Assembly (NCBI GenBank): GCA_030698625.1
Contig: JAUYMS010000017.1
Coordinates: forward strand, 12,962-76,961
Source: Candidatus Omnitrophota bacterium
GTDB lineage: Bacteria; Omnitrophota; Omnitrophia; Omnitrophales; Aquincolibacteriaceae
Direction of reading: 5' to 3'
DNA: 64,000 nt
Part shown: positions 445 to 19,225 of the stretch, in pieces
Layout of the letters: each line of letters begins with the position of its first letter
Numbering within the stretch: the first letter of the stretch is position 1
The notes under the pieces: generated by a model
The model's database searches: none
Told to the model about the DNA's origin: nothing
Seen by the model: only the letters and a program-made list of their open reading frames with translations
Position numbers and translations under genes: made by a program

Positions 445-2202
445 TTGAAGACCGGACTTTCTATAACTGGGTTCTGGAAGTTTACTGCTTTCCACACGCT
501 CGTCTTTTTCAGCATGACGACCATTTTGTGGTCCGCGCCCTCGCTCACCGTCAACGACGTCCTCAGGCAGGGCCTCACCAGTGACAACATCGGACTGCCC
601 TCACTCGTTAATCGCATTGAAGTCCCCGAGACAAGCGGCTCCATCCTAAAGCGTTTCGAAGCGAATTCCTCAGGCCCGTCTATCGTTCACATTCAAGATG
701 CCCACACCCATTACGAAGCGCAACAGAATATCCGCCGCATATTGAATCACCTGTCCGAGGAGTATCAAGTTCAGCACATCTTTCTGGAAGGCGCTATGGA
801 TCGCGTTGATCCGGAACTCATGCGCTATTTCAAAGACACAGAAGCCAACCGTGACATCGCTGAGCTTTTGGCAAAAGAAGGCGTTCTTGGCGGTGCCGAG
901 CTTTTCTTGCTGCAGGCGACAGAGAATGCACAGCAATTAAAAACACAAGCACACGGCGTCGAAGACCCCGATCTTTACAGGAGAAATATCGCGCTGTATC
1001 AAACTGTTTATGCCGACAAGGAAATAGCCGACAACTATTTGACATCGGTGAAAGCCCAGATAGTGACGCGAGCATCCCACGTTTTCGGCAAAAAATTGCG
1101 AAACTTCTTTCGCGAATGGCTTTTTTATCAAGACATCCCCAACGAACTGTTAAGGCAGCTGAACACACTGCGCAAGTATGCTGCCGAAGAACTCGGAGTG
1201 GAGCTAGGCGATGCGCGAGAGCAGATAGACTGGCCCCAGCTCGTGAGATTCTTTAGGCTGCAGCAACTGGAAACAGAAATTGATTTCGAGAAAGCCGGTA
1301 CGGACAAAGGAAGACTTATTGCGTGGATTCGCGAGCAGGAAATAGGTGAGAACTTTGCGGAAGAGTTGAGCGCATGGGACATCAAAAAATCATTTCTCGG
1401 CCGCCAACATGCTGATCTCAGAACTTTCTTAGAGGCGTTACATCAATCTTCGAGGGAGCGGAATTTCAGTTTTGAAACCTACGGAGAGTTGAAGCTGGTG
1501 TTAGGAGCAGCCATCTTGAGGAGTGAGATTAGTGCTACGGAGCTTTTTGATGAAAGCGAGCGCCTCACAGCCCGCATGCTGGGGCGGTTGGCCGCCACCC
1601 CCGAAGAAGAGGCGCTTGTTTCTATATATAAGGATTACGTTCTCTCGGAAAAGCTCTTTTCGCTGGAGCTTGTTTCGGAAGACCATAATGAGCTTGAATC
1701 CAGATTCCGCACCCTGAAACCCTCGCAGCTTATCGCCCGAATCGACGGCGAATACGCAAAATCCTTCGAGAGCAGAGAATTAACGGAGCTGGACGGCTTA
1801 TTCGAGCAGGCACGGGATTTTTATCGTGTTGCCGTAGAGCGAGAAGAGGCCATTTTTGAAAATATGACCCGGCGAATGAAAGAACAGGGCATCGAAAGCG
1901 CCGTGCTGATTACCGGAGGGTTCCATGCGACGGGCTTGCACAGGCTTTTTGAAGAACGGGGTTTTTCCTATGCAAATGTTGTCCCGCATATGCTTGAAGT
2001 TGGCGACAGCAAAAGCTATACGGATCTTTTGATGTTACGGGGGGACTCCCTCACGCGGCGCGCTTACCTAAGCGCGCCGCGCCTCCCTGACATCTCCTTT
2101 CAGCACCAGCTGCCCGAGCACTTCGAAAGTTACCTGGTCTATCACGTGCTTCCGGCTCTTTCCCGGGAGCTTCTGAAGCGTCTCAGCTTAGGGCACGATC
2201 TG
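445..2202 (+). other. Shared N-terminal module of the giant-protein family (copy 1); function unknown
   Basis: Hydrophobic N-terminus MKTGLSITGFWKFTAFHTLVFFSMTTILWSAPS. Blocks conserved across all three copies: IVHIQDAHT (about 682-708), GGAELFLL, WPQLVRFFRL (about 1231-1260), ITGGFHATGL (about 1902-1937). Ends at the first RSELR (2203-2217). Confidence 0.6.
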
Positions 2203-5200
2203 CGCAGTGAGCTTCGAAGTCTAAATCAACAGGCAGCTCTCCTTGATCGTGGCGTCTTGGTTGACGAGGTCACCGGTGAAGTTTCTATTGCCGGTGAGTC
2301 ACTCGGGTTACTGTTCACGGATCGCGGATTGAAAAAGGCGCTGACCGCAACCGCCAATTCAGACGCGGTGAATATCGGGCTTTACGGTAAATGGTTAGCG
2401 GTTCACAGCGCGGCAGGAGAACGCTATACGCTGCAAAAATACAGCGCAGCTCGCGGCGAAGTGATAACCACCAACGCTGTCTATCTGAATAAAGGCGGAA
2501 ATGTCGACCGGGCCCTTTATTCGCCCAACCGAAGAGTTAAGCCGAGCGACGGTAATCGATATGTCGCACGCCAGGTCATCATCTCAGAGTTTGCTAAGGC
2601 GCGGGGGCTTTCCTTTGTGCCGCAGATCATAGATGTCAAGCCTGCCGACTCGACGGTCAGTGAAAACGGACTCATTCAGTTCGAGGATCGGAGTGCCGCC
2701 GAAGACTCACGCGATAAGGTCCTGTATGTGCGCAAGAACGCAGCCGGAATTCCCGCAGACGAGCAGATCGGAAAGTTGAATCCCGCCGAGCGGAGCCTGA
2801 TCTTGCTCGACGTGTTTCGTGCAGTCAAAAAGCTCTTTGACAGCGGTCTTGCGATCGAGGATCTAAAGTTCGACAATTTCCTGATTCGGAAGGATTATTT
2901 GGAAATTCTAAATCACAGAAAGGAGCAGCCGCTGGAGGAACCGGAAACTCTGAGTGTCATTCTTCATGACTTGGGAGGGGCGCTATTTGTTGACCCCGAT
3001 AGCCTGGTGCAATGGCTCGAAACGGAGCGTGCGGGCGGCGCTAAACATCCGCTGGCTGATTTGGTCGACGGGGGAAGGCGTTACAGTCTGGATGGGCGAG
3101 ACAACGGCACCATGCACGCAATTCATAAAAACCAGCAAACGAGTTTTCTGCAAGACGCCGGAAATCTAGTTCGCTTTGAAAGCAGGCTTGATAAAGCCTG
3201 GGCAGGAAACGCTTCGCGAAAGGCGCTTCTTGGTTATTTGGTCATTCATCAACTTGCGAAAACCGCGATCAGCTGGATGACCAAAAGCGTTGATCCGAAA
3301 GAATATTCGCGCCGTGCCTTCGCCGGGATGAGCCATCACGCATGGACTTTTAACAACATCATGCAGGACATCGAGGCTTTAACGCAGCCCGATGCATTCA
3401 GGGCGTTAGAATCCGACGATGTGCTTCAAGAGCGAATGAGCGAGACGGGTCCGCTGAGCAATGAATCTCGTCGGGAGCTCCAAGAGCGTCTTATTGAGCA
3501 GCAATTCGCGGCGCTCTACCAAAATTTAACCTGGATTCATTTGCTCATTCGTCAGGCGCGCCAGGAGACCACCGAGACGAAGACGGACTCGGGCGAAGTG
3601 GCAAGCAGTACGTTCGATACGCTCGATGCGTCCATCGAATCTACCGTGACTCCCGGCGGCGCAGGAATAACGGATGTCATGGAAGCCAAGGCCGAGCGCC
3701 CGACGTTGCCGCGCACAGAAGTGATGGATGCGCGCAGTCCCGTACGCTCTGAGCTGCGCATGGACCCGTTTGATAAGGAAAGCCTGACGGCAGAGGAAAT
3801 GGGCGCGCGCTTAAATGAAAAGGCCAGGGGTAATTCCATCGTCGCAAAGTTCAAGGATACGCTCTTAAGTGTCCAAAGAGATCTGCCATTGGGGCAGATG
3901 CTCAAAGAGATGGAGCAGCAAGTCATTCTGGAAATAGGATCGGGTGAGGATATGCAGCTGATCAACTTCTGGGTACGCGACTTGAAGTTCGATCCCGCGA
4001 AAATCTATGCCATTGAGCCTGCGCTAACCACAGGTTCGAATAACCCGCTTGGTCGAGAAAACTTTGCCGCAGGGCTTTTCCGAGAAGACTTGCCGGAATC
4101 ATGGAAATCGATCCGCTTTGATTGGATATTTGCGTACCACGTGGCCGAAGCATTGCATTCGGGTAAGCCCCTGGACGGTATTAATCATGAGGATTTGCAA
4201 ACGGCTTATGGCCTATTACGAACCGGGGGTCAGCTTACGGTACATCCGCTCGATTTTAATCTCGCTATGGACAAACTGATCCCCGAGTTTGGAATACCTT
4301 CCGGAATTCCACTACCCGCTGAAAGATCCGCTGTGGCAAAGTTTCTGGAAAGTGTGAATTTTGAATACCCATACCGTCCGCTGCTACATGGCGGCTTTAC
4401 TTTCGCCAAGGGTGTCCGTTCCGAGCTCCGCTACGAAGTTAGTGATTTGGTGGGAGGCGAGGCGAATCTCGAGTATCTGCGAAACATTGAAGCGGCGGTC
4501 AATCAGGATATGGAAGCGCCTGCTTACGCGCGACTTGCGATCTATCTTGCTTCGGGTGCGGACATTTCGACCGCGCTTCTTGCGACCGATGCGGACGAAT
4601 ACCTCTTTGTAGAGAGAAGACCCTTTATCAATCCCAACTGGACGTGGGATGAATCAACCGAAAAGCACCTGAATCGCTATGTGGAGGGTAAACAATTTTC
4701 CGATTACGGAATGACAGATGACATGGCAGCTGCGGGAGAGACGCGGAGTTATTTGCGCGGGGAATTAGAGGTTCTCGGGGCCGCAAATATTATCGTGCCT
4801 GGCGCAACCCGTGAGGACGGTATCTACGAGATCTTTTTCACCTGGCAGGGTAGAGAGAGGAAGATTACCTATGTCAGCGCGGAGTCAGAAGCGGAAAGAC
4901 GCGTACAAATCGCCCATGTGATGAAAGGGCGTAAAGGCGCAGATTATCTGATCGTGAAAGCCGGTGACTATGGAGCGAATGTGGGAGGCGTAACCACCAC
5001 GGAATTGAATGGCGTGATCAGCCGTTTCGTTGGGGGCGGGGGGCACCTGATTCTCGATTTTCCGCATCGCCGTAACGACACCGAACCTGTGTCCGTGAAA
5101 CAACCATTATCTGCGAAGTTCGGCTACGGTAAGGCAATGCTGATGCAGGACAGGGCTTTTGTTTACCGGATCGTTCTTTCACGGTCTCACCTACCGGATC

Positions 5201-8200
5201 TGAGCGGGGCGATGAGAACGGCAAGAGAGTGGTTGTGGCTGGCAGCACCATATGGCTTGGTCGGCAGCGGACACCGCATGGGCGGACCCGCGCGCTCCGA
5301 ACTGCGTGAAGGCGGGGAGCAGCTTGAAGATCTACAGATTGTACAAATGGTCAGGATGGATCGTGCGCTTACGAGACTGACCTCAGAGGACACAGAGTAC
5401 GGCAATGAATTGGGGATTACCCCTACCCAGGAAGGGGTAGGGTCTACTTACGTCGAAGGAGAAGTGCGTAGGTTCCTCGAATTTGCGGGCCAAAGTGATT
5501 TACGCGATCAATTGAGTTTCGATCCTTCGCTTGAGGGCGCCCGGGTTCATGTTTTTGGATTCGGAATGCAGGGCTATGAGATTCTGGCCTTTCTCCAGGA
5601 ACTGGGTGCCGGGCGTATCGATGCGGTCAGCGCGTTACCTTCAGACTTTCGCGGGCTTGACCGAACGTTGAAGGATAACGGTCTCCAAGACGCCCATGTC
5701 GACGGATATCTTTGGCAGGGGCAAAACTTGATTTCGGAACTCGCAGAACCTGAAAGTCAAGCCGATATTGTTTTTCTGGCGGATGTCGTGGATGAAAGAC
5801 ACTTCACCCCGGAAGAAATCAGAGCTATTGCCGAAAATCTCATCCGCTATGTTAAACCCGGAGGCCTGCTAATCTCGGCAGGGCAGGTTTACCGGCTTCA
5901 CGAGCTGGGTGCCATACATCCCGAAGACCCTATCGTCAGAATCGAGCACCCCGTTGAAACCCCTGAAGTCGCTTTCTTCTTAAAGGAAAAAACAGATCGC
6001 TCCGAGCTGCGTGCGGATAAAGCGGAGTTGGCGAAGTTAACGGCGGCGTTGGAGCGTGTGTATGCAGCCGTAGCGCTTGATGTTGACGGCACCTTGCTGG
6101 ACGGAACCGGCGACGGGTTCATGAAGAATATCCATCATATCATCGGCTTTCTCCGCGAAGGAGTCCCGGTGGCCATCGTTACCGGAAATAATGAAAGCAT
6201 GGTTAAGGCCATTTTGATTCGCACGATCAAGAATCTCCTCACCTCCGCGAAGGACTACAACATGACAGATGCCGATGCTGCCGCCGCTATGGAGAACCTT
6301 CATATCTATGTCTACAACGGGGCCAAGGGGTTCAATGCCGGAACAGGGGAAGTCTACTACAACAGGTTTTTTGACGAACTGACGGGGCACAGCACGCGCC
6401 ACTTCATCGAGGCAATCTCGAGGGACCCGGGTCTCAGAGATATTGCAGAAAACTCTATGGTTCAGGATGCGCGAGCCTATGGATTTCATTTCTTTCCTTA
6501 CGGCCAGACGCCAGACCTGGATGGATATGCCGACAGACTGAACAAATTTTTTGAGCGCGAGGGTTACCCGCTTGAGGCAAAGACGTCTTCGGTCGGTGTC
6601 GACGTTTTCCCGAAGGGTGTTGATAAGGGCTATGCGATCGCCGATCTTGCTTTGCGAATTGGTGCTGAGCCGAATCAGATCGCCAAGATCGCTGACCGCA
6701 TGCAAAAGGGCGGCAACGATGACGCGTTTAATGATGAAAGCAGTTTTGCGGTAAAGTCTTATGATGAAGATAATCCGAGGCAGATTTCTATGGTTAAGGC
6801 GGTCGAACTCACCGGGGCGGCAGCTACCGGCTATCTGCTGGAACGCTTGAAAATAAAGGGCCGCGCCGACCGATCGGAGCTGCGGACCGAAGACGTGCAG
6901 ATTCTGGATGTCGTCTTCGATCCTGAAACGGGGGCCTATGTTTCGCGGGCGGAACTCGATAGGCGGTCCCGGGAAGAAGCGGGGCGGTCGCGCGAAGCGG
7001 CGATCATTGCAAAGGCGGCAGAGCCGCGCACACCGCTCCAGACCGCCGGAAAATTGCTGGATGTCGCGGGATTTGCTTTTATGGTTCTCGGGGCTAACCT
7101 CTTTACGGCGGGCATTGTTGCGGCCCTCCTGTTTAATATTACGTCGGTCATCGGGATTGTTCTCGTAACGTTGGGAATCGCAACTCTTGCGGTGGTCGTG
7201 GGCGAAAGCACCTTTGTCGGCCTTCCGTATCTATTCGGACGTTACGATTTTGCGAAGCTGGTCGGAATCAGCAATGAAGAGGCGGTAGATCGCGCCGAAC
7301 AGGCGTTTGTCGATGTTAAAGAAACGGCCTTGACGAAGGAAGACTGGCATGTACTCGGCGGCTTGCGTCATGTCGGGGAACCGCGCGGCTTCTTCCGTAT
7401 TGCCTATGACATCATTGAAGTGGTGGTAGGCAAAGGCGATACGGTCCATCCGGCTATTGCCTTCGGGCCGGTACTGCGTTATCAGACCGTGCGCCGATTA
7501 GGGCTTGGAAACGACTTTGACAGACTAATGCCGCGTTACATCAAGAATCTGTCGGGAGATCAACCGTCATTATTGGCGCGCTCTTTTTGGTGGGTTTACG
7601 GGGATTATGAGCTCTTGAAACGCGCTTATTCGTACGGCTACCTTTCTATCGTTCCTTTCTACGCGCTGCCGCACTTTCTCCTAAGCAGCACGCTCTTTCT
7701 GGCTTTGACTGCGCTCAGAATTCTTTCACTCCCGCTCACACTCAGGGGCGGTATCAAGGCGTTCCTTGAAAGACTGAGCATGATGAAAGCTTATGCTGCA
7801 ATTACCCTGCTTTACCTCTCAACCGCGGCGGAATCTATGACGGATAAAACCGTGACAAACGAATTGCCCGATGCGATTACGGTCGGTAAGATGACGGTTG
7901 AGGGCCGAGCGCGGTCTGAATTAAGAGATGATGTCGAAGAGGCTATAGCGCAATGGGCGGCAGGCAAGGAGGTCGAACTCTTGCAAACAGTCTCTGTCGA
8001 CGGATCCGAATTCCGATTTGTGCACCGAGCACTTCCCGTCATGGATGCGTATCCGGGTATGCGTGAGACCATCGAGGTTTATGCGGGGCAGACCCGTATC
8101 GGCGGCATTGTCTTTCGCGTGAGGAGTTCGGGGGTTTGGCGCGACACGCTGATCGGCGGCCCGCTGACGGGCGTCGATGACGCCCTTGATGTGGAGGCTT

Positions 8201-11200
8201 TATACCGTGAACGTTATGAAGGCATTGGAAGAACACTGCTTGCGCTTGTGGTCCTTTTAACCCACGCGCGCGGGATTCCGAAAATCAAAGCGGCCAAGCA
8301 GTTGAATATGCAGCAGTATGAAGATCTGGGCTTCCACTATTCCCCTTCGGTGGATGAATATGTGGCCGACTTGACCCATTTACGCGACGACGTGCCGGGA
8401 CGGGCCGAAGGTGCGGTAGGTATCGTGAAGCGCTCCGAGCTGCGCGATGATGAAATGAGCGGCCTTGTTACCGTTCCAGAAGATAATCCTTACGAGACAA
8501 CTTATGCGGCTCGGCCCACTTTTAGCCAGGCCTTTCCGGACTCAAGTCAATTGATCAGAGAACTTGATACCGTTTCCGTCGGGTCCTTTATGTGGTCCGC
8601 TGGAGTTATTGAGAACACGGAGCAGAATGAATCCGTGACGATATTTGATAATGCCATCGCACTGGCGTTAAGCCTTGCGGCGATCGGGGTACTGTCCTTT
8701 TTCTGGTTGGGGATCTTGAGTTCGCCATCAGGCGTGGTTCACGAACTATTTAATGGACTGGTCGATGGCTACTTGTTCCGGATCTTGATGTCGCTTGCGA
8801 TCTCGACGATTCCCGTTGCCCTCTTGACGTTTATCACCGGGCTCTATTTTTCGGGAATACGGGTATCTCATAAGAAAGTCTTCGCTCAGATCCGGGACGA
8901 TCTCACAGAGAATCCGCCTGCAGGGAAGCTGAGATTGATCGGCCTGCTCTTGACCGCTTTAACCGACAGGAACCAAAATATTCGCAAAGCCGCTGAGAGC
9001 GAGCTGAACCGAATTACAAAGCAGGTTCCGAGCGTAAGACAGGCCTTAGACGCCGGCGTAGCAGGTATCGCTCGCTCCGAACTTCGCAGTGATGAAATGA
9101 GCACCGATGAGGTGCGCGAGCTTCTGAGCCGTGTCCCGCCACCGACACCGGTCTTTGAACAACGGGGAGGGGTCACAGAGGAAAATCCTTATGGGGTGCT
9201 TCTGGAGATATGGCCGACAGTGGGGCAGGCGTTTCCCGAGCTTTCGCAGTTACTTCGCGATCTGGATAATATTTCGGCGTTAGACCTTGAGTTCGCAATC
9301 GACGCTGTTGCTGAGACGACTAAGGGGAGATATGAAGGAAAAATCCATAATGTTTTTGTGGCGTGGCTCACGCTGCCAATGCTTTATCTGTTTTCTGTTG
9401 TGGGGGTGTTACTTTGGAGCGAAATGAGCACTTTGCCTCGGATAGCGAAAGATGCCGTGCGTGATTTCGTCGTTGACGGGCCTCTGTTGTGGCTTGCAGT
9501 CGCATCGTTTGCGACGGGTCTAATATTGGCGGTGAGAGTATTATTCTTTGCTGCGCCAAAGGGGTCTCATAAAGAAACCGTTTCGGGCATCAAAAAAAAC
9601 TTATATGAAAATCCCCTAGCGGGGAAACTCGAGGCGCTTCGCTTTCTTTGGAGTCACGCTAATCATAGGGATCAGAAGATTCGCGAAAGTGCGGGCAAAG
9701 CGCTCGAATTTGTAGCAAGTAAAGTCCCGAGTGTGAGACAGGCTTTAGATCGTGGCGTGCAGACCCCCACTCGGTCTGAATTAAGGACTGATGAGGAGCA
9801 AGTCTCGATATTCCTGGGGGCGCTCTTGAGATTAGCGGAGTCGGTGAATATTGAGAGACGCGACTCGCTTTCCGTGGCGCGCGTATTGGACGACGGAACG
9901 CGCCTCTATGAGTTACCTCTCGAAGTTTCTTACCTAAAATCGCGTAACATTCAGCCGGGGAATCCGGTTCCGCTCGAAGAGCTGACCCGTTTCTTTACGG
10001 CGCAGGGCATTGAGGATCTTTCAAATATCTCCTTAGGCTACGGTGCCTCGGAGCTGAAAGGTCCGGCACTCCTCGCAGTGGAAGACCGCGGCGGCGACTT
10101 GCAGTTAATCGGTCTGTCGTTTTACCGTTTCAGCAAAGACTCGGATGACTACGGTCTCGGACTCATCAGTTTTGGAAATGCTGACGATCTCATCCGTCAG
10201 TATCAAGGCTCGCTGGATTATCCCGGGAACCGCGCAGCCGGAATTATTACTCCTCAGGTGGAGTTCATTACGGACGGGATTTCCGTCGAAGCAACTTTTC
10301 AAGCTCAGGGAGCCCGACGGGAAGTCCTGATCAAGCGCCTCCGCTCCAAGGCAAAGATTCGTCAGGTAGATCTCCCGCGGCCGTCTCGCCACATGGCCCG
10401 CTCTGAGCTGCGGGCCGCAACGGTTAAAGGTAAAGATCAGGATTTCTTTGGCCGGGGTCTGGTCAAGGACCATTATGACACGGTAAGGCTTTTGGTGCCC
10501 GAACCGCTGATTCGCGATGTCGCCGGAGAAGGCTTCTTGATTCCGGAGCCGCTTCAGAACCCCGATTTGGTTATGGCGAGCACCGGTGCGCGCGAGTCAA
10601 ACCTCACATTTGCTGCTGATAAGGCCTTTTTCTCGGTAATTTTTAAATCAAAAGACGTCCACCGGCCTTTTCTTAAATCCGATTTCATCTATTACGGAAA
10701 AACGCTCGAGATCTTGCCGGGAACGATGCGGCCATTTCGCGAAGATCAGGAACGAACCGACATTGTCGCGGCGGACAGGACGTTTGCATGGTGGTTCCGG
10801 CATAACGTCGTCCCTTTTGCGCAGGCGCTCGGCTATGAAAAGATCGGGATCACGATCGTGAAAGGCCTCTCTAAGCGTATCAGTCAGTCCACGCTCAGGG
10901 AACTTGGCTTCCGTGAGCCCCGGATAGGAGGGCGCGCGATCTGGATTTACGATCTAAAGCCGGAGCAGCAAGCGTCGCGTTCCGAACTGGGCGTCACACC
11001 GGATCCGCTTAAAGCGCTTCGGCGCCCGGCCCTCCGCCAGTTTATCCGTGATCTTTTAGTGAACAACTACAGCAGGTTCCTTCCGGAATTTTTTCAAACG
11101 AAACCGCAGGGCCCGTATGTGGATATCGAAGCCTGGGTAGACGGTATTCTTCAAGCCGGCGCGGACTTCAGCGGGGATCCGGTTGCCGCGGCGAGGTTTT

Positions 11201-13536
11201 TGAATGACCATCGCGTTACCTTTGATCCCGGCAATATCTTTCGCTGGGGCGGCGCTGTGGAGCTGCGCGCGAGCTTGCGTGATTTTGAGCAGGCCGAGCT
11301 GGAATATGCGGACCGCTTTCATCCGGGTCCGCGGGTATTCGATGTGGGGGGCGGCTCGGGCCGCTGGCTCAGCGGAATCGCAGACCGGCACCCCGGGCGC
11401 TTCACGCACCTGCTTATGTCTGAGCGCTATGCCGAAGGCTATAATGTCACCGACGAGCGCATCGTGCAAATTGCGCAGAGCGGCGAGCGCATTCCGCTGG
11501 ATGAAATCATTGCGGCCGCGGGCGGTGACGGCGTGGAAAGCGCTCAACTGCGTTATGTGCTTCACCACACCTATGGCGAGCTCCAGGACCCCAACGACCC
11601 GGCAGCCGAAGAAAAGGTTGTTGAGTTTCTGAGCGATGTCCGCAGCGCGATCGGCCACGGCGGTCAACTCTTTGTTTATGAAGATACCTATCCTCTCGGT
11701 GACGCTCAGCGTTTTCCGCTTCCGGAAGCTCTCAGCGAAGCCCAGCAGAAGGAATTTACCGAGCGCTTCCTCACGCTGAGCGAAGAAGACAAATACCTCT
11801 ACATGGTTTTTACTGATTGGTACTGGAATGTCTTTCTCGGCCGTCATTATGGCATGTCCATGGCCTACCGTTATTACCCCATGGAGAAGTGGGTGGAGAT
11901 CTTCAACCGGGCGGGCTTTGAGGTCGAACGTGCTGAGTATCTGGGATTTCTCAAGCAGCGTGTTCACGGTGCTACCCAGGGCGTATTCGTCTTACGCAAT
12001 CCCGAACGCTCGGAATTGCGGGCGATGAGCCGGCGCGGCTTTCTCGAGCGGGTTATGAAAACAGCCGTTCTTGCGTCCTTGTCCTTGCCCTCTCTGCCAA
12101 GCGGCCCCGGTTTAGGTGAAACAGCGAGCCTATTATTGGGCTCTCCGCGGGGGTACATGGGGACCCCGGCAGGGTCATTGATCCATGTGATGCGTAGCGG
12201 AGGTGTCATCGTTTTCGACTCGAAGAACATGATGACTCCGGCCACCCTTTTACGTCTGGAGAGGACGTTCAGCGCCAAGTCAGGTCCGTCAGCCAGAGTG
12301 AAAAAGATACCAAGCGAGAGGGACTTAGTGAAGCAAAGACGGCAGGCAATCGAATCTCAAATCGCCGCCGCCAAAGAAGAAATCCAAAATATTGTCTGGG
12401 ACGGTCCTTTTGACGGGATTAGCGGTGACGCCATCGAACTGGTACTGCGCGAACAGGAGATCGAGCAAAGAATCACCCAATTAGAGAAAGAATGGACCCG
12501 TGTGGATACAACCGAGCCTGCGTCGGAAGCGTCGCGATCTGAGCTCCGTGCGATGGATGTTTCTCACCTTTCAGCGGCGGATCAGGCCCTTTTAGCGGAT
12601 CGATTTCCGGATACCGATGCCCTTGAGGCGGTCATTGCGGTTACTTTTGTCGCCGAGAAGACGGTATCTCTTAAATACTATCAAGAACCCGCCCTGGTGC
12701 GGGTCCTTATTGAGGCTGTGGCCCCCGAAATTGCGGTGGTCCAGGCGGATCAAGCCGAGGTCGCTCGAGAGATGGAAGCCTGGGCCAATGTCCTGGCACG
12801 GCTTGTGACCGAAAGAAAACTCCTTAGTGATGGGACCGGGACCGTCGTCTCCACCACGGAAGGTGATTTCGAGAAGAGAAAAGCGGTTACGCTGGCAAAA
12901 CTTCCGCTTATGGCGGCTGTGGCTAAGCGCGACCCCCGCGGCAACTTTCTCCAGAACTTCGTCATCGGGGGACCGCATGCCGAGGCTATCCATAGAACCG
13001 TGTTCAGCCGCAATAATGACCTAGACGCTACGGTGAAAGCCTTTGCCGGAAAATTGAGATGGGGTAAGCAGGAAGAGCCGCTCGGAGACCTGATTACTGA
13101 AGCGATCAAGGAAGAAGCCAGGAGTTCGACGCCCGGATCGGTGATTTCATCAGTCACAGCACAAGAGGCTGACGCCATCCCTGAGGTGATTACCCGGGTT
13201 TTGAGGATGATTCAAGACGAAAGCGAGCTCCGGAACCTTGATCTATGGAATCCCGAAGAAATTGCCGCATTCGCAGCCGCAGATTTAGCGCGTGACTTGA
13301 TGTTACAGGACTTTGCGTCGCGCGAACAAGTGGATCCTGAGCGATTAAAGCTTGATCGGGACTATGCGAATGGTATTGCAGAGCTTCTCAAACAATATAT
13401 TGCAGCCAATTACCCTGATATCGATCTTAACCAGGTTGCTATCCGGGGAGGACGCTTCCATATCTCGTTACAGGAAGTCTCTAAACAGCTACAGAGCTTG
13501 CGCCAGGCTCAGGAAGAGATTAGCAGCGCCGCGTAA
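445..13536 (+). CDS. Giant multidomain protein 1 (4363 aa): signal/TM anchor + conserved N-module, then at least 14 RSELR-delimited modules
   Basis: Uninterrupted 13.1 kb ORF with a TTG start and strong RBS. Its N-terminal 586 aa are paralogous to those of the ORFs at 21986 and 48511. Recognisable domain motifs are listed as separate features. Confidence 0.9.
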   Translation: MKTGLSITGFWKFTAFHTLVFFSMTTILWSAPSLTVNDVLRQGLTSDNIGLPSLVNRIEVPETSGSILKRFEANSSGPSIVHIQDAHTHYEAQQNIRRILNHLSEEYQVQHIFLEGAMDRVDPELMRYFKDTEANRDIAELLAKEGVLGGAELFLLQATENAQQLKTQAHGVEDPDLYRRNIALYQTVYADKEIADNYLTSVKAQIVTRASHVFGKKLRNFFREWLFYQDIPNELLRQLNTLRKYAAEELGVELGDAREQIDWPQLVRFFRLQQLETEIDFEKAGTDKGRLIAWIREQEIGENFAEELSAWDIKKSFLGRQHADLRTFLEALHQSSRERNFSFETYGELKLVLGAAILRSEISATELFDESERLTARMLGRLAATPEEEALVSIYKDYVLSEKLFSLELVSEDHNELESRFRTLKPSQLIARIDGEYAKSFESRELTELDGLFEQARDFYRVAVEREEAIFENMTRRMKEQGIESAVLITGGFHATGLHRLFEERGFSYANVVPHMLEVGDSKSYTDLLMLRGDSLTRRAYLSAPRLPDISFQHQLPEHFESYLVYHVLPALSRELLKRLSLGHDLRSELRSLNQQAALLDRGVLVDEVTGEVSIAGESLGLLFTDRGLKKALTATANSDAVNIGLYGKWLAVHSAAGERYTLQKYSAARGEVITTNAVYLNKGGNVDRALYSPNRRVKPSDGNRYVARQVIISEFAKARGLSFVPQIIDVKPADSTVSENGLIQFEDRSAAEDSRDKVLYVRKNAAGIPADEQIGKLNPAERSLILLDVFRAVKKLFDSGLAIEDLKFDNFLIRKDYLEILNHRKEQPLEEPETLSVILHDLGGALFVDPDSLVQWLETERAGGAKHPLADLVDGGRRYSLDGRDNGTMHAIHKNQQTSFLQDAGNLVRFESRLDKAWAGNASRKALLGYLVIHQLAKTAISWMTKSVDPKEYSRRAFAGMSHHAWTFNNIMQDIEALTQPDAFRALESDDVLQERMSETGPLSNESRRELQERLIEQQFAALYQNLTWIHLLIRQARQETTETKTDSGEVASSTFDTLDASIESTVTPGGAGITDVMEAKAERPTLPRTEVMDARSPVRSELRMDPFDKESLTAEEMGARLNEKARGNSIVAKFKDTLLSVQRDLPLGQMLKEMEQQVILEIGSGEDMQLINFWVRDLKFDPAKIYAIEPALTTGSNNPLGRENFAAGLFREDLPESWKSIRFDWIFAYHVAEALHSGKPLDGINHEDLQTAYGLLRTGGQLTVHPLDFNLAMDKLIPEFGIPSGIPLPAERSAVAKFLESVNFEYPYRPLLHGGFTFAKGVRSELRYEVSDLVGGEANLEYLRNIEAAVNQDMEAPAYARLAIYLASGADISTALLATDADEYLFVERRPFINPNWTWDESTEKHLNRYVEGKQFSDYGMTDDMAAAGETRSYLRGELEVLGAANIIVPGATREDGIYEIFFTWQGRERKITYVSAESEAERRVQIAHVMKGRKGADYLIVKAGDYGANVGGVTTTELNGVISRFVGGGGHLILDFPHRRNDTEPVSVKQPLSAKFGYGKAMLMQDRAFVYRIVLSRSHLPDLSGAMRTAREWLWLAAPYGLVGSGHRMGGPARSELREGGEQLEDLQIVQMVRMDRALTRLTSEDTEYGNELGITPTQEGVGSTYVEGEVRRFLEFAGQSDLRDQLSFDPSLEGARVHVFGFGMQGYEILAFLQELGAGRIDAVSALPSDFRGLDRTLKDNGLQDAHVDGYLWQGQNLISELAEPESQADIVFLADVVDERHFTPEEIRAIAENLIRYVKPGGLLISAGQVYRLHELGAIHPEDPIVRIEHPVETPEVAFFLKEKTDRSELRADKAELAKLTAALERVYAAVALDVDGTLLDGTGDGFMKNIHHIIGFLREGVPVAIVTGNNESMVKAILIRTIKNLLTSAKDYNMTDADAAAAMENLHIYVYNGAKGFNAGTGEVYYNRFFDELTGHSTRHFIEAISRDPGLRDIAENSMVQDARAYGFHFFPYGQTPDLDGYADRLNKFFEREGYPLEAKTSSVGVDVFPKGVDKGYAIADLALRIGAEPNQIAKIADRMQKGGNDDAFNDESSFAVKSYDEDNPRQISMVKAVELTGAAATGYLLERLKIKGRADRSELRTEDVQILDVVFDPETGAYVSRAELDRRSREEAGRSREAAIIAKAAEPRTPLQTAGKLLDVAGFAFMVLGANLFTAGIVAALLFNITSVIGIVLVTLGIATLAVVVGESTFVGLPYLFGRYDFAKLVGISNEEAVDRAEQAFVDVKETALTKEDWHVLGGLRHVGEPRGFFRIAYDIIEVVVGKGDTVHPAIAFGPVLRYQTVRRLGLGNDFDRLMPRYIKNLSGDQPSLLARSFWWVYGDYELLKRAYSYGYLSIVPFYALPHFLLSSTLFLALTALRILSLPLTLRGGIKAFLERLSMMKAYAAITLLYLSTAAESMTDKTVTNELPDAITVGKMTVEGRARSELRDDVEEAIAQWAAGKEVELLQTVSVDGSEFRFVHRALPVMDAYPGMRETIEVYAGQTRIGGIVFRVRSSGVWRDTLIGGPLTGVDDALDVEALYRERYEGIGRTLLALVVLLTHARGIPKIKAAKQLNMQQYEDLGFHYSPSVDEYVADLTHLRDDVPGRAEGAVGIVKRSELRDDEMSGLVTVPEDNPYETTYAARPTFSQAFPDSSQLIRELDTVSVGSFMWSAGVIENTEQNESVTIFDNAIALALSLAAIGVLSFFWLGILSSPSGVVHELFNGLVDGYLFRILMSLAISTIPVALLTFITGLYFSGIRVSHKKVFAQIRDDLTENPPAGKLRLIGLLLTALTDRNQNIRKAAESELNRITKQVPSVRQALDAGVAGIARSELRSDEMSTDEVRELLSRVPPPTPVFEQRGGVTEENPYGVLLEIWPTVGQAFPELSQLLRDLDNISALDLEFAIDAVAETTKGRYEGKIHNVFVAWLTLPMLYLFSVVGVLLWSEMSTLPRIAKDAVRDFVVDGPLLWLAVASFATGLILAVRVLFFAAPKGSHKETVSGIKKNLYENPLAGKLEALRFLWSHANHRDQKIRESAGKALEFVASKVPSVRQALDRGVQTPTRSELRTDEEQVSIFLGALLRLAESVNIERRDSLSVARVLDDGTRLYELPLEVSYLKSRNIQPGNPVPLEELTRFFTAQGIEDLSNISLGYGASELKGPALLAVEDRGGDLQLIGLSFYRFSKDSDDYGLGLISFGNADDLIRQYQGSLDYPGNRAAGIITPQVEFITDGISVEATFQAQGARREVLIKRLRSKAKIRQVDLPRPSRHMARSELRAATVKGKDQDFFGRGLVKDHYDTVRLLVPEPLIRDVAGEGFLIPEPLQNPDLVMASTGARESNLTFAADKAFFSVIFKSKDVHRPFLKSDFIYYGKTLEILPGTMRPFREDQERTDIVAADRTFAWWFRHNVVPFAQALGYEKIGITIVKGLSKRISQSTLRELGFREPRIGGRAIWIYDLKPEQQASRSELGVTPDPLKALRRPALRQFIRDLLVNNYSRFLPEFFQTKPQGPYVDIEAWVDGILQAGADFSGDPVAAARFLNDHRVTFDPGNIFRWGGAVELRASLRDFEQAELEYADRFHPGPRVFDVGGGSGRWLSGIADRHPGRFTHLLMSERYAEGYNVTDERIVQIAQSGERIPLDEIIAAAGGDGVESAQLRYVLHHTYGELQDPNDPAAEEKVVEFLSDVRSAIGHGGQLFVYEDTYPLGDAQRFPLPEALSEAQQKEFTERFLTLSEEDKYLYMVFTDWYWNVFLGRHYGMSMAYRYYPMEKWVEIFNRAGFEVERAEYLGFLKQRVHGATQGVFVLRNPERSELRAMSRRGFLERVMKTAVLASLSLPSLPSGPGLGETASLLLGSPRGYMGTPAGSLIHVMRSGGVIVFDSKNMMTPATLLRLERTFSAKSGPSARVKKIPSERDLVKQRRQAIESQIAAAKEEIQNIVWDGPFDGISGDAIELVLREQEIEQRITQLEKEWTRVDTTEPASEASRSELRAMDVSHLSAADQALLADRFPDTDALEAVIAVTFVAEKTVSLKYYQEPALVRVLIEAVAPEIAVVQADQAEVAREMEAWANVLARLVTERKLLSDGTGTVVSTTEGDFEKRKAVTLAKLPLMAAVAKRDPRGNFLQNFVIGGPHAEAIHRTVFSRNNDLDATVKAFAGKLRWGKQEEPLGDLITEAIKEEARSSTPGSVISSVTAQEADAIPEVITRVLRMIQDESELRNLDLWNPEEIAAFAAADLARDLMLQDFASREQVDPERLKLDRDYANGIAELLKQYIAANYPDIDLNQVAIRGGRFHISLQEVSKQLQSLRQAQEEISSAA
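2400..3150 (+). other. Protein-kinase-like / phosphotransferase-like domain
   Basis: Catalytic-loop-like DLKFDNFLI at 2860-2886 (aa 806-814) and a downstream DLGGALF (DFG-like). Resembles the HxDLxxxNxLI of the ePK/APH fold. Confidence 0.4.
3760..4416 (+). other. Rossmann/SAM-methyltransferase-like module
   Basis: Motif-I-like ILEIGSGED at about 3925-3951, followed by an acidic residue and an IYAIEP pattern. The module is bounded by RSELR at 3745 and 4417. Confidence 0.35.
5308..5997 (+). other. Class-I methyltransferase-like module
   Basis: VHVFGFGMQGYEILAFLQELGAGRIDAVS (G-x-G motif I-like), ADIVFLADVV, and YVKPGGLLISA (post-II PGG motif). Confidence 0.35.
6040..6800 (+). other. HAD-superfamily phosphatase domain (Cof/sucrose-phosphatase-like)
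   Basis: Motif I ALDVDGTLLDG at about 6073-6105, 20 aa after RSELR; the loop K in SVGVDVFPKGVDKG; motif IV-like GGNDDAFND at about 6706-6740. Confidence 0.6.
7065..7745 (+). other. Membrane-embedded module (multiple predicted TM helices)
   Basis: AGFAFMVLGANLFTAGIVAALLFNITSVIGIVLVTLGIATLAVVVGESTFVGLPYLF (7065-7240) and YGYLSIVPFYALPHFLLSSTLFLALTALRILSLPLTL (7630-7745). Confidence 0.5.
8446..9072 (+). repeat. Module 8: two TM helices + HEAT/PBS-lyase-like repeat; paralogous to module 9
   Basis: TM stretch 8655-8865; NPPAGKLRLIGLLLTALTDRNQNIRKAAESELNRITKQVPSVRQALDAGV (8905-9060), then RSELR. Confidence 0.5.
9088..9771 (+). repeat. Module 9: duplicate of module 8 (TM pair + HEAT-like repeat)
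   Basis: TM stretch 9352-9557; NPLAGKLEALRFLWSHANHRDQKIRESAGKALEFVASKVPSVRQALDRGV (9610-9760), then RSELR. About 75% nt identity with module 8 over the VPSVRQALD block. Confidence 0.5.
11250..11750 (+). other. SAM-dependent methyltransferase domain
   Basis: Motif I RVFDVGGGSGRWLSGIADRHPG at about 11331-11396, with a downstream acidic residue and a QLFVYED block. Confidence 0.5.
12022..12120 (+). other. Internal twin-arginine (Tat)-like signal-peptide sequence immediately after RSELRA
   Basis: …RSELRA-MSRRGFLERVMKTAVLASLSLPSLPSGPG: the S-R-R-x-F-L-(K/E) motif plus a hydrophobic h-region, at aa 3861 of 4363. Confidence 0.45.
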
Positions 13537-13554
13537 TAGGCCGCCAATAAAAAA

Positions 13555-13581
13555 GGCCGCTCTTTCCGAGCGGCCTTTTTT
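13555..13581. terminator. Rho-independent, probably bidirectional, terminator downstream of giant gene 1
   Basis: GGCCGCTC-tttcc-GAGCGGCC is a perfect 8-bp GC stem with a 5-nt loop, followed by TTTTTT and preceded by AAAAAA. It is 19 nt after the TAA stop at 13534-13536, and the flanking genes are convergent. Confidence 0.7.
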
Positions 13582-13596
13582 ATGCATTTAAAGGGC

Positions 13597-13626
13597 AGTA
13601 GGGGCACCGCGCGCTGTGCCCCTACT
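13597..13626. terminator. GC-rich 11-bp inverted repeat (AGTAGGGGCAC-N8-GTGCCCCTACT); possible terminator for the minus-strand M24 peptidase gene
   Basis: Perfect 11-bp arms with an 8-nt loop in the convergent intergenic region. Only a weak U-tract on the minus strand. Confidence 0.3.
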
Positions 13627-13759
13627 TTCAGGTCCACGTGGAACTGGGCACGTGAACCTCTGGGATACTTTTATTTCCGCGACCTAATTTTAGTATAGCA
13701 CACACTTTTTTTTGTGCAAAAAATTTCACGAAAAAAATGAAAATAATTTCGACTATTAT

Positions 13760-14896
13760 TTAGATTTCTAAAAATTTCGGCGCGCGTGTTAAATTGATGC
13801 ATCCTTTTTTAGTAATGACCACTACATCTTCTAAACGAACGCCGCCGATGCCCTTATAATAGAGTCCGGGTTCAACCGTAACGACATTACCTGCTTTCAT
13901 AATGTCGCCGCCCGGGCTAACGCGCGGCTCTTCATGAATATCCAGTCCCAAACCGTGGCCGGTCCCGTGGAAGAAGCCCTGCATGCGGCCGTTCATGACT
14001 CCCGTGGTGAATCCCAGTGCTTCAAAGCGCTTGTGAATGGCGTTGTGCACGTCTCCGGAGTTAATCCCTTCACGCAACATAGAAAATCCTATGTCTTGTC
14101 CTTCCCGAACGGCCGCATAGATTTTCTTTAGTTTGGGCGAGGCCTTACCACGCACGACCGTACGGGTAAAGTCGGCAAAATAGCGGCTCGCAGAGTCTCG
14201 CGGAAAGATATCCATGATCAGTGATTGATTGGCGTAGATGGGGCCCGACCCTTCATTGTGAGGATCAACGGCATGTTTGCCGCAGGCAACGATCGAATGG
14301 CTGGCGATAAAGCCCGATTCCATCAGTGAGACATTAATGACCTGTTTGAGGCGTTCAGAGGTAAGGATTTTGCCCTGATAGTAGAGTTTTCCGCGCCTAA
14401 TGAGCGACTTACGCAGGACGGCAATAGCTTTAGCGACGGCCTTTTCGGTGTGCCGAATGGCATTACGGATATACCTGATTTCGGCAGGGGTTTTGACCAG
14501 ACGGCGCGTGAAAAAAGGGTCGGGCCTGACCTGGATTCGCAGCCGGCGCTTCCTAAGGAGATCTGCGTATTCTAAGGGGAAATTGCCGGGAACCGTCAGC
14601 GATTTGACCCGGCGGGATTTCACGAATTCTTCGATGATATCCAGATACCCCGGTTTGCGCTGATACTTACGCACAAAGTCTTTCCTAAGCGCAGAAATGG
14701 AGAAAACGCGGTCAACTTTGGCTTGGGAACGGGCGCGATCGACTTCCAGATCGCTCATGAGGAGATATTTCTTACCGCGTATGACTAAATAAGCAAACGC
14801 GTCGGGCGCAATGAAGCGGGTGGCATAATACATGTTAGCATCCTGCTCGCTTGACGCAATAATTAGAATATTTTCAGATTTTGAAGTCTTCTTCAT
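13760..14896 (-). CDS. M24-family metallopeptidase (Xaa-Pro aminopeptidase/prolidase-like)
   Basis: 378 aa with the pita-bread fold signature FHGTGHGLGLDIHEEP, plus VEPGLYY and GVRLED metal-ligand blocks. Confidence 0.85.
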   Translation of the reverse strand: MKKTSKSENILIIASSEQDANMYYATRFIAPDAFAYLVIRGKKYLLMSDLEVDRARSQAKVDRVFSISALRKDFVRKYQRKPGYLDIIEEFVKSRRVKSLTVPGNFPLEYADLLRKRRLRIQVRPDPFFTRRLVKTPAEIRYIRNAIRHTEKAVAKAIAVLRKSLIRRGKLYYQGKILTSERLKQVINVSLMESGFIASHSIVACGKHAVDPHNEGSGPIYANQSLIMDIFPRDSASRYFADFTRTVVRGKASPKLKKIYAAVREGQDIGFSMLREGINSGDVHNAIHKRFEALGFTTGVMNGRMQGFFHGTGHGLGLDIHEEPRVSPGGDIMKAGNVVTVEPGLYYKGIGGVRLEDVVVITKKGCINLTRAPKFLEI

Positions 14897-14923
14897 TGTG
14901 CAATTGGGGCTCTTGACTATAAT
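14896..14923 (+). promoter_or_regulatory. Candidate sigma70-type promoter for the Rieske-tkt operon (TTGTGC-16-TATAAT)
   Basis: -35 TTGTGC at 14896-14901 and a perfect -10 TATAAT at 14918-14923, about 40 nt upstream of the GTG start at 14965. SD AAGGAG at about 14949-14954. Confidence 0.3.
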
Positions 14924-14964
14924 TGTAAAGCCTTAGCATCACGAAGACAAGGAGTTCATCGAAC

Positions 14965-15279
14965 GTGGCGGAATTTGTAAAGGTCGCGAAGACGGCGGAT
15001 ATTCCCAAAGATACCGGATTCCATGTGGAGTCCGGCGGAAGGGATATCGCTCTTTTTAAAGTGGATGGGAAGGTCTACGCAATTGATGCTGTCTGCGCCC
15101 ATTCCGGAGGACCACTCGCCGAAGGCGGCTTGCACGGTAAAGAAGTCATGTGTCCGTGGCACGGATGGCAATTTGACGTGACGACGGGCGAATGCAGCTT
15201 TAATCCTTCGGTAAAACAGGCAACATTCAAGGTCAAGGATGACGGTGAAGACATTTACATATCGATTGACGCTCCCTAG
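14965..15279 (+). CDS. Small Rieske [2Fe-2S] ferredoxin (NirD/dioxygenase-ferredoxin-like)
   Basis: CAHSGGPL...CPWHGWQF is the canonical CxH-X(15-17)-CxxH Rieske ligand pair. 104 aa with a GTG start. Confidence 0.85.
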   Translation: MAEFVKVAKTADIPKDTGFHVESGGRDIALFKVDGKVYAIDAVCAHSGGPLAEGGLHGKEVMCPWHGWQFDVTTGECSFNPSVKQATFKVKDDGEDIYISIDAP

Positions 15280-15302
15280 GAAAGCAGATAAACTCCAAAA
15301 CT

Positions 15303-17080: not shown

Positions 17081-17154
17081 AGACTGTCCTCTTAATTTTT
17101 CTCGCGTTTCTCATCACCTCGAATCAAGCCTTCGCTGCCACCGGTGAGAAGGCG

Positions 17155-18687: not shown

Positions 18688-18693
18688 CGTTAT

Positions 18694-19224: not shown

Positions 19225-19225
19225 C

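Follow-up and report, generated by a model that had tools for sequence, protein, structure and literature searches.

Omnitrophota have been proposed to live as predators or parasites (PMC10066038; 10.1101/2023.11.21.568195), and in the source data of PMC10066038, two Omnitrophota genomes have entries for the tatA and tatC KOs. Neither gene was found in the window analysed here, meaning the whole stretch of 64,000 nucleotides, and related loci totalling 1.28 Mb contained neither. The giant proteins have been handled in published work as single membrane-anchored polypeptides, and the pentapeptide R-S-E-x-R treated below is not described in any paper of the searched literature. This pentapeptide joins complete, unrelated proteins into the giant ORF, and one of them, module 13 of ORF g1, opens with a segment resembling a Tat signal peptide. 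The layout of g1 is as follows.

445-13536, + strand: giant ORF g1, 4363 aa, head domain and 14 modules with RSELR junctions between them
445-2202, + strand: head module with signal-anchor helix (aa 7-30), Tiki/TraB/Ere-fold domain and disordered tail to the first RSELR
2203-2217, + strand: RSELR junction
3745-3759, + strand: RSELR junction
4417-4431, + strand: RSELR junction
5293-5307, + strand: RSELR junction
5998-6012, + strand: RSELR junction preceding a HAD hydrolase module
6871-6885, + strand: RSELR junction
7912-7926, + strand: RSELR junction
8431-8445, + strand: RSELR junction
9073-9087, + strand: RSELR junction
9772-9786, + strand: RSELR junction
10399-10413, + strand: RSELR junction
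10978-10992, + strand: degenerate junction RSELG
10993-12006, + strand: module 12, with methyltransferase-like GGGSG motif, ending ...GVFVLRNPE
12007-12021, + strand: RSELR junction before the Tat-type signal
12022-12027, + strand: Ala-Met spacer with in-frame ATG at 12025
12028-12048, + strand: twin-arginine motif S-R-R-G-F-L-E
12049-12120, + strand: R-V-M-K and 19-residue uncharged h/c-region TAVLASLSLPSLPSGPGLG, ending in Glu
12121-12534, + strand: passenger part of module 13, ORFan, ~138 aa, small beta region and long helices
12535-12549, + strand: next RSELR junction, with A-M again directly after it

The g1 ORF starts at a TTG (445) with a GAGGGAGGG Shine-Dalgarno sequence upstream and is continuous; the independent Logan assembly SRR13727534 agrees with the window over positions 7155-25689 (18,535 nt), apart from 1 mismatch. 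Its head, the model of which is disordered from aa 543 up to the first RSELR, is homologous to the membrane-anchored heads that begin g2 and g3 (30-33% identity among the three). Encoded in at least 564 Omnitrophota loci and present once per polyprotein, the head displays a Tiki/TraB/erythromycin-esterase/RRSP hydrolase fold with an invariant His-Glu-His (H87, E115 and GGFH494 in g1), and this combination makes it a candidate processing protease. Module 12, directly upstream of the junction under study, gave no family match and no PDB sequence match.

The window contains 31 copies of RSELR (13 each in g1 and g2, 5 in g3), and its other four frames contain none. The junctions differ in the synonymous codons that encode the motif, and thus selection acts on its protein sequence. 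While position x is always Leu in the junctions of this genome, Ala, Thr and Ser together make up ~30% of sites across the family; the R, S, E and R positions never vary, and linker-like sequence rich in A, S, P and G flanks the motif. Downstream of heads, RSE[MVALIT]R was found at 148 sites in 106,505 aa against ~0.5 expected (~300-fold enrichment), whereas other ORFs (219,003 aa) have only 8 RSExR sites, most of which lie in polyprotein fragments. Some head-bearing giants are without RSExR. The sister giants in the window contain the following features.

21986-48319, + strand: giant ORF g2, 8777 aa, homologous head and 13 RSELR junctions
32078-32092, + strand: RSELR junction (g2) heading the module with a second Tat-like motif
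32240-32326, + strand: second Tat-like motif (g2), G-R-R-E-F-M-Q followed by TSTAVMASMSPAAKLFLGQAAA
37736-37750, + strand: RSELR junction (g2), 4-5 residues short of the natural N-terminus of a full-length UDP-glucose dehydrogenase (Ugd)
48406-64000, + strand: giant ORF g3, open at the window end, homologous head, VWA and MoxR-type AAA_5 modules
50254, 51958, 55969, 58984 and 61228, + strand: the 5 RSELR junctions of g3

The g2 modules include a complete Ugd, REC+HD, a PPDK-like enzyme and an acyltransferase, and the RSELR ahead of Ugd ends 4-5 residues before residue 1-3 in solved full-length Ugd structures. The Tat-like motif of g2 lies ~50 aa past its junction, behind a TM-like segment and then RKK. 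Judged from sequence, RSExR is a phylum-wide junction motif at natural protein boundaries. The preliminary description had ranked the g1 signal as the most concrete of all hints at processing, a place now taken by the junction at the exact Ugd N-terminus together with the family-wide statistics.

The sequence and position given there, RSELR-A-M-SRRGFLE at residue 3861, are borne out by translation of nt 12007-12120. RSELR (codons CGC TCG GAA TTG CGG) stands directly 5' of the signal and is followed by Ala (12022-12024), Met (ATG, 12025-12027; residue 3861 counted from the TTG start), S-R-R-G-F-L-E (12028-12048) and R-V-M-K (12049-12060), the last placing two basic residues between the twin-arginine motif and the h-region. 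Nineteen uncharged residues span 12061-12117, and a Glu (12118-12120) closes the segment. The (S/T)-R-R-x-F-L-K consensus is matched at six of seven positions, with K replaced by E. Confidence in the AF2 model of this region is low (pLDDT 53). In abbreviated form, the signal segment reads AMSRRGFLERVMK...GLGE. A search of 1.84 billion representatives returned only the self-match of module 13, making it an ORFan.

Export-type signals recur after junctions in other polyproteins. In a sample of 151,416 aa of head-bearing polyproteins, the pattern RRxF[LMIV] matched 19 times, and five of the matches fall within the 30 aa downstream of RSExR, a zone that accounts for 3.6% of all residues (binomial p = 4.5e-4). 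The g1 signal and three others of these five start exactly 3 residues past the motif; the four matches besides g1 are listed here by locus.

L046: Tat-type signal after junction, RSEMR-AIARRSFLAEL...
L046: second Tat-type signal after junction, RSEMR-GINRRGFLAG...
L052: Tat-type signal after junction, RSEVR-ETNRRGFLKAG...
L006: Tat-type signal after junction, RSETR-(20 aa)-NRRIFMGAG...

The modules bearing these post-junction signals are non-homologous to one another, and each of the eight Tat-like signals in the 151 k aa is located at a module start or close to one. Likewise, signal-peptide-like (Sec-type) N-termini follow 10 of 190 junction sites, compared with 226 of 17,329 control windows (OR 4.2, p = 2.6e-4).

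It had been proposed that an N-terminal-type Tat signal at this position would need a new N-terminus at RSELR. The motif's place at protein boundaries, the recurrence of Tat and Sec signals after junctions and a subtilase discussed below speak for this, while cleavage and Tat dependence are what we infer from the sequences. On balance, we lean slightly towards the segment being a real Tat-type export or membrane-insertion signal of module 13 in an RSELR-processed Omnitrophota polyprotein. The whole chain is translated as one polypeptide, the ORF being continuous and containing no internal Shine-Dalgarno sequence or promoter. An endopeptidase, for which the head domain is the best candidate, would cut at or beside each RSELR, giving module 13 the N-terminus A-M-S-R-R-G-F-L-E..., a putative Tat signal with a 3-residue n-region, and the ~17-kDa module could then pass to the Tat translocase for export or anchoring. 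The Ugd, PPDK-like, REC-HD and methyltransferase-like modules would remain cytoplasmic, and further modules may be sorted by Sec-type, lipobox or TM signals that they themselves carry. A Tat-type signal directly after a junction motif that recurs across the phylum thus suggests that cleavage of these giants yields many proteins, each sorted separately. However, the positively charged N-flank predicts the head on the periplasmic side, out of reach of cytoplasmic junctions, which counts against the head-protease scheme, and a chain threaded out via Sec would not reach Tat from within the cytoplasm, a topology problem for the explanation that we favour.

Alternatively, a stand-alone Tat preprotein may have been fused in frame, leaving the twin arginines as a relic, a membrane anchor or part of an amphipathic helix in an uncleaved or otherwise cleaved giant, with no Tat transport. 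The A-M past RSELR resembles a retained start codon, the signal deviates from the consensus (Glu for Lys, R-V-M-K ahead of the h-region, no clear A-x-A signal-peptidase site), its h-region hydrophobicity is modest (KD 1.35-1.59), and both the ORFan status of module 13 and the published treatment of giants as single polypeptides would fit. Yet we consider this fusion relic unlikely, as the fixed 3-residue spacing recurs in non-homologous modules and other genomes, export-signal-like N-termini are enriched specifically past junctions, a decaying relic would hardly retain a full RRxFL and 19 uncharged residues, and the S8 subtilase is an export-type enzyme keeping its signal within a polyprotein.

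It could also be speculated that the chain is exported by its N-terminal signal into another bacterium or archaeon and cut there by the head protease, the Tat and Sec modules using the target's translocases to reach its envelope. The charge distribution at the head N-terminus predicts an exported head, the nucleotide-dependent, cytoplasm-type modules would serve no purpose in the periplasm of the cell that makes them, and the head shares its fold with the toxin and effector domains RRSP, HopBA1 and PMT, in line with the lifestyle proposed for Omnitrophota. This scenario appears improbable, however, since the giant genes have housekeeping neighbours and no linked delivery apparatus, no RTX, CPD or T1SS features were found, and many modules (Ugd, transacylase, response regulator) resemble ordinary metabolic or regulatory proteins. 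To our knowledge, toxins exploiting a target cell's Tat system have no precedent, which also counts against it.

Independent translation, to which the preliminary description had left room, would make proteolysis unnecessary: initiation at ATG 12025, or at TTG 12016, the Leu codon within RSELR, would yield a separate preprotein MSRRGFLE.... The in-frame ATG lies two codons past RSELR, and 35% of all junctions have ATG, GTG or TTG at position x. Genuine start codons of the window, in contrast, have GGAG, AGGA or AAGGA 6-12 nt upstream, whereas no SD-like sequence precedes ATG 12025 or 12553 and no promoter-like site lies between 11400 and 12700. Moreover, at six junctions of other loci that are followed by a signal, x is encoded by a codon unfit for initiation (GTA, ACG, GCG, CTG, ACA and TTA) and no Met comes ahead of the signal, and the share of Ala, Thr and Ser at x points the same way, leaving internal initiation very improbable. 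Finally, a random SRRGFL string beside a random hydrophobic stretch, conceivable for a single instance in the window that profile HMMs did not report, is extremely improbable given the spacing shared with three of the four sister signals near junctions and the confinement of Tat-like signals to module starts.

At locus L023, an internal Tat/lipobox signal, MNRRQFLAGAMMFPLAGILGGC, heads a Peptidase_S8 (subtilase) module. Its 54 relatives are subtilases that stand alone, most of them with a signal peptide at the N-terminus. Searches with the PF10518 and TIGR01409 profiles did not report the g1 module 13 signal, and the proven Tat signal of TorA is likewise missed by them. Three of the sister signals score 12-15 bits on the Pfam TAT_signal model, comparable to the 16 bits of SufI, another proven Tat signal.

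The three giant plus-strand open reading frames (ORFs) of the window, g1, g2 and g3, are divided into modules by the pentapeptide RSELR:

g1, 445-13536, plus strand, with 13 copies of RSELR
g2, 21986-48319, plus strand, 8777 aa, with 13 copies of RSELR
g3, 48406 to the window end, where it is still open, plus strand, with 5 copies of RSELR

The three ORFs thus hold 31 copies, and the other four frames hold none. The RSELR codons differ synonymously among sites, which excludes a DNA-level repeat or RNA signal and therefore points to selection on the peptide. Modules between junctions are about 170-1300 aa long and include complete enzymes, i.e., a HAD hydrolase, an acyltransferase, a REC+HD module, a PPDK-like enzyme, and a UDP-glucose dehydrogenase (Ugd), as well as VWA and MoxR-type AAA_5 modules in g3. 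In the Ugd module of g2, RSELR ends 4-5 residues ahead of residue 1-3 of solved full-length structures, and the junction therefore lies at a natural protein N-terminus. The linker ahead of the first RSELR of g1 is disordered in the AF2 model of the N-terminal domain. Two adjacent modules of g1, 8 and 9 (8446-9771), are paralogous and represent a tandem duplication that includes the junction; both begin with (D/S)DEMS, share ENPY...QAFP..SQL(I/L)R(E/D)LD and two TM segments each, and end in ...KVPSVRQALD.GV....RSELR. Degenerate junctions are also seen at apparent module boundaries, namely RSELG (10978-10992) and, before the acyltransferase module of g2, RSEPR in WQRSEPRADEATEAI, and these may be inactivated or variant sites.

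The three ORFs all open with a hydrophobic N-terminal helix followed by a module of ~550 aa, referred to here as the head, which is homologous among g1, g2, and g3 at 30-33% identity. In the protein database, the head is related to proteins from Candidatus Omnitrophica MAGs that are annotated as hypothetical and carry the junction variants RSEIR, RSEAR, RSEVR, HSELR, and KSEVR. Scanning GTDB genomes with the head alignment revealed at least 564 loci with a head, and every named locus belongs to Omnitrophota. In 50 of the 80 retained loci, RSE[MVALIT]R occurs 148 times in the 106,505 aa downstream of the head, compared to ~0.5 expected, and other ORFs of the same loci (219,003 aa) carry 8 sites, chiefly within fragments of polyproteins. 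In this phylum-wide form, RSExR, the residues R, S, E, and R show essentially no variation and x can be L, M, V, A, T, I, or S, within linker-like flanks rich in A/S/P/G upstream and A/E/S/T/D downstream. The codons of RSExR are biased, the first Arg being CGN in 183/193, Ser TCN in 178/193, and the last Arg AGR in 48/193, which may reflect spread of the junction by duplication or a constraint at the nucleotide level. Some head-bearing giants without RSExR carry other recurrent motifs, such as RPE[SA][RK], found 16 times in locus L031 (ORF from nt 92), and [AG][AS]SLG, found 4-9 times each in L025, L065, L038, and L064. These alternatives suggest that each lineage has its own junction motif, co-evolving with the head.

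Behind one of the g1 junctions, nt 12007-12120 on the plus strand encode RSELR-A-M-S-R-R-G-F-L-E-R-V-M-K-TAVLASLSLPSLPSGPGLG-E, the start of module 13. Re-reading thus reproduced the RSELR, twin-arginine motif, and hydrophobic stretch of the preliminary description, and recomputing likewise placed the Met at residue 3861 of a continuous ORF of 4363 aa (445..13536). The segment S-R-R-G-F-L-E (nt 12028-12048) agrees with (S/T)-R-R-x-F-L-K at 6/7 positions, and the h-region comprises 19 uncharged residues (maximal KD over 12-13 residues 1.35-1.59) followed by a Pro/Gly-rich stretch. E. coli SufI (MSLSRRQFIQASG...) and TorA carry canonical N-terminal Tat signal peptides, with which module 13 shares the S-R-R-x-F-L core and an uncharged, moderately hydrophobic h-region. 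Unlike these, the signal of module 13 lies 3861 residues inside the ORF, has E in place of K and R-V-M-K between the twin-arginine motif and the h-region, and shows no A-x-A on inspection of the c-region, where the small residues S-L-S, G-P-G, and T-A-S are present. Tat signals are expected within ~35 residues of the N-terminus, and as encoded, at residue 3861 of 4363, this one is far outside that range; it would be N-terminal in this sense only after the cleavage at RSELR that we infer.

Neither PF10518 nor TIGR01409 matched it at E<=10, which is uninformative because calibration of PF10518 showed the test to be insensitive, SufI scoring 16.2 bits, below the 22.7-bit cut-off, and the proven TorA signal scoring nothing. 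Signals from three other head-encoding loci, L023, L052, and L081, reach SufI-like scores of 12-15 bits with PF10518 (TAT_signal). No homologues of module 13 were found in a word-indexed search of 5.8 billion proteins, a HMMER scan of 1.84 billion representatives matched only its own protein, and the exact 51-mer was not found in GTDB genomes. The passenger shows no known family or cofactor motif, and the methyltransferase-like module upstream found no match in a PDB sequence search. Run on a single sequence, AF2 models the junction region with low confidence (pLDDT 53) as a helix over RRGFLERVMKTAVLAS followed by disorder, which is too weak to tell a buried helix from a free one. TatA and TatC were not detected by tblastn in the window or the 81 loci (1.28 Mb), and the source data of Seymour et al. 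2023 (PMC10066038) list K03116 and K03118 (the tatA and tatC KOs) for two genomes of Omnitrophota. Overall, we lean slightly towards the view that the module 13 segment works as a Tat-type signal once a cut at RSELR exposes it.

Further signal-like sequences occur elsewhere in the window. A second Tat-like motif, GRREFMQ followed by TSTAVMASMSPAAKLFLGQAAA, is located in g2 (aa 3365-3448, window 32078-32326) ~50 aa past an RSELR and directly after the TM-like segment AVKVGAVVVGTAAAGTAGYYLL and RKK, and may act either as a hairpin anchor or as a Tat signal whose n-region is long. The same genome also encodes an ordinary N-terminal lipoprotein signal with twin arginine, MTRRWYLIPLCLILFASCAS, at the start of an 81-aa ORF (19226-19471, plus strand). 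In addition, a 219-aa ORF with a signal peptide and no Pfam match (20209-20868, minus strand) ends in ...PEAGTLALMLGGLAAMRVRRRLSKTN, a tail that, judged by its sequence, looks like a PEP-CTERM-type sorting signal.

Export signals behind junctions are also found in other head-encoding loci:

L046, RSEMR-AIARRSFLAELAAGTLGLLGI, Tat-type, directly after the junction
L046, RSEMR-GINRRGFLAGVGAFLSFSG, Tat-type, directly after the junction
L052, RSEVR-ETNRRGFLKAGFKGGLFTLGAVAV, Tat-type, directly after the junction
L006, RSETR-(20 aa)-LNRRIFMGAGAAMAGMTGL, Tat-type, after the junction
L062, RSELR-SFRLLMLAGMVAIASFWTAVSAKAQT, an example among Sec- or anchor-type N-termini

The motif RRxF[LMIV] occurs 19 times in 151,416 aa, and five of these lie within 30 residues past a junction, a zone making up 3.6% of the sequence (p = 4.5e-4). 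Four of the five, that of module 13 among them, begin exactly three residues past the pentapeptide. Sec- or anchor-type N-termini are likewise enriched past junctions, with 10 among the 190 RSE[LIVMATS]R sites scored, which derive from 55 head-bearing ORFs, compared to 226/17,329 control windows (OR 4.2, p = 2.6e-4). Nearly every Tat-like motif in the 1.28 Mb of loci falls within a polyprotein, and two further ones, in L023 and L081, come after a GSL-type motif and Met. The L023 signal, MNRRQFLAGAMMFPLAGILGGC, combines Tat features with a lipobox and heads a Peptidase_S8 module (L023 nt 8370-9773). This module has 54 relatives in the database, stand-alone subtilases with lengths of 185-475 aa, of which nearly all fall within 290-475 aa and most bear N-terminal signal peptides. 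By this resemblance, polyprotein modules look like complete preproteins, signal included. The other signal-bearing modules are mostly orphan in Pfam, with one weak beta-helix match. In L081, nt 15611-18310 behind the internal signal MDRRQFLKQLVGIPAFLTVLG encode ES...GATQL...AAAYNSG motifs that are lytic transglycosylase-like, which Pfam did not confirm. The preliminary description had read the internal signal as a pointer to post-translational processing, a reading that this comparative evidence largely backs and does not prove.

That the g1 ORF is an assembly artefact is ruled out, as an independent Logan assembly of run SRR13727534 spans window 7155-25689 and differs from it at a single position in 18,535 nt. 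Translation of module 13 on its own, which the preliminary description had offered as the alternative to cleavage, would call for an internal start, and neither an internal SD nor a promoter was found. At real starts in the window, GGAG, AGGA, or AAGGA lies 6-12 nt upstream, and the TTG start of g1 itself is preceded by GAGGGAGGG; ATG 12025 and ATG 12553 have no SD-like sequence upstream. Between nt 11400 and 12700 there is neither a sigma-70-like promoter nor an excess of terminators, and the only antisense ORF near the site on the minus strand (11056..11967) ends before the junction. Codons able to serve as starts occupy position x in 35% of all junctions and in 7 of the 13 that bear a signal, and at six signal-bearing junctions x is GTA, ACG, GCG, CTG, ACA, or TTA, with no Met before the signal. 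Given the missing SD and promoter and the non-start codons at signal-bearing junctions, internal initiation is rejected as a general mechanism, and independent translation of module 13 is unlikely.

Cleavage at RSELR would need a protease, and the head itself is a candidate. The AF2 model of the g1 head (pLDDT 78, pTM 0.70) shows a TM helix at aa 7-30 and an alpha/beta core with a large helical insertion, followed by a disordered tail into the first RSELR. In this model, the head adopts the alpha/beta fold common to the Tiki/TraB/EreA/ChaN superfamily, with the following comparison scores:

TraB family protein, 9.4
Ere-like 2rad, 9.3
EreC, 9.1
HopBA1, 9.0
Ere-like 2qgm, 8.4
ChaN, 8.2
RRSP (MARTX Ras/Rap1 endopeptidase), 7.9

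The Tiki/TraB/Ere/RRSP superfamily includes site-specific endopeptidases (Tiki and RRSP). A-H87, E115-G116, R466, and G491-G-F-H494 are invariant in the alignment of nine head sequences, and H87, E115, and H494 may represent the His-Glu-His catalytic constellation of the superfamily, with its GxxH motifs. No match to Pfam (TraB, Erythro_esteras), NCBIfam, or PDB sequences was found at E<=10, the PDB being searched with the head profile, and the model thus suggests a relationship to the Tiki/TraB/Ere superfamily at the fold level only. On this modelled fold, the head is a candidate junction protease. No conserved protease gene is found beside the heads, whose neighbours are varied housekeeping genes. 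Head-only proteins without downstream modules exist, namely P0007 (508 aa), P0008 (545 aa), and those of L079 and L070; the head can therefore be stand-alone, which fits an enzyme also acting in trans. The N-flank of the head helix is positively charged in g1 and its homologues, which predicts an exported head domain, an arrangement that fits poorly with a cut in the cytoplasm and subsequent Tat export. Another candidate junction protease, acting after Arg, is the S8 module that some polyproteins contain. Immediately downstream of g1, and convergent with it, lies an M24 metallopeptidase gene (13760-14896, minus strand); M24 exopeptidases of the Met or Xaa-Pro aminopeptidase type could trim new N-termini.

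In the proposed mechanism, a cut of g1 after RSELR would leave the module 13 signal with an n-region of 3-4 residues. It could further be speculated that the giant genes are operons in one ORF, encoding dozens of complete proteins that are cut apart at motifs, after which a Tat, Sec, lipobox, or TM signal carried by each product would direct its sorting. The cutter would then be a Tiki/TraB-like head protease co-evolving with the junction motifs, which would be RSExR here and RPE[SA][RK] or [AG][AS]SLG in other clades. Taken to its extreme, the idea would have the chain delivered into prey, where its internal Tat and Sec signals would hijack the translocases of the prey cell. Taken as a whole, with the prey version included, this speculation is improbable.

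Giant proteins of Omnitrophota have been described in three studies (10.1101/2023.11.21.568195; PMC10066038; 10.64898/2026.06.07.730766), which concern the same phylum and the same mosaic content as here: methyltransferases, NUDIX, HAD, PPDK_N, AAA_5, and response regulators, with N-terminal signal or TM segments. This work proposed C39 and S8 peptidases, and RSExR, polyprotein junctions, and a TraB/Tiki-like head go unmentioned in all three studies. Cleavage of the giants was suspected by West-Roberts et al. 2023 (10.1101/2023.11.21.568195), who described the cleavage points as unknown. The 2026 complete-genome preprint (10.64898/2026.06.07.730766) mentions neither cleavage, motifs, nor polyproteins, and its pipeline suppressed internal signal-peptide calls as artefacts. 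Our literature searches for RSELR or RSExR variants in this sense, or for Omnitrophota together with Tat, returned nothing relevant. Whether the giants act as single molecules or as pieces is an explicit open question, and a pentapeptide at module boundaries with Tat and Sec signals behind it offers concrete predicted cleavage sites that make the question testable. If this is confirmed, viral polyprotein expression would have a counterpart in bacterial cells. Genome annotation would change too, as the giants could be cut computationally at their junction motifs before structures and functions are predicted, and calls of internal signal peptides should be kept rather than dismissed as artefacts. 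Confirmation would also provide, to our knowledge, the first case of Tat signals exposed by endoproteolysis.

The nearest known parallels are viral polyproteins with internal signals, MARTX toxins, and gingipain polyproteins. Polyproteins of the Flaviviridae type likewise derive many mature proteins from one ORF, using a cis-encoded protease that cuts at a short consensus, and their internal signals are of the Sec/ER type, acting co-translationally in eukaryotic hosts. In these viruses, as in the scheme proposed for Omnitrophota, internal signals at module starts direct membrane translocation. However, the Omnitrophota genes lie on a cellular bacterial chromosome, the motif and the candidate protease fold are different, and Tat-type signals act on folded proteins after translation, unlike the viral Sec/ER signals. 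MARTX multi-effector toxins of Vibrio are autoprocessed by a CPD at X-Leu junctions and include the RRSP effector. No Peptidase_C80 (CPD), RTX repeats, or T1SS features appear among the Pfam matches of g1, g2, and g3, whose junctions are RSExR rather than X-Leu and whose modules include ordinary metabolic enzymes and bear their own export signals. In the gingipain/HagA polyproteins of Porphyromonas gingivalis, domain junctions are cut after Arg by a polyprotein-encoded protease; yet these form a single complex of protease and adhesin domains, the protease has a C25 cysteine protease fold, and neither a strict pentapeptide nor an internal export signal is known there. The Omnitrophota case differs from the viral, MARTX, and gingipain systems in its motif, its candidate protease fold, its cellular chromosomal setting, and the Tat-type signals at module starts.
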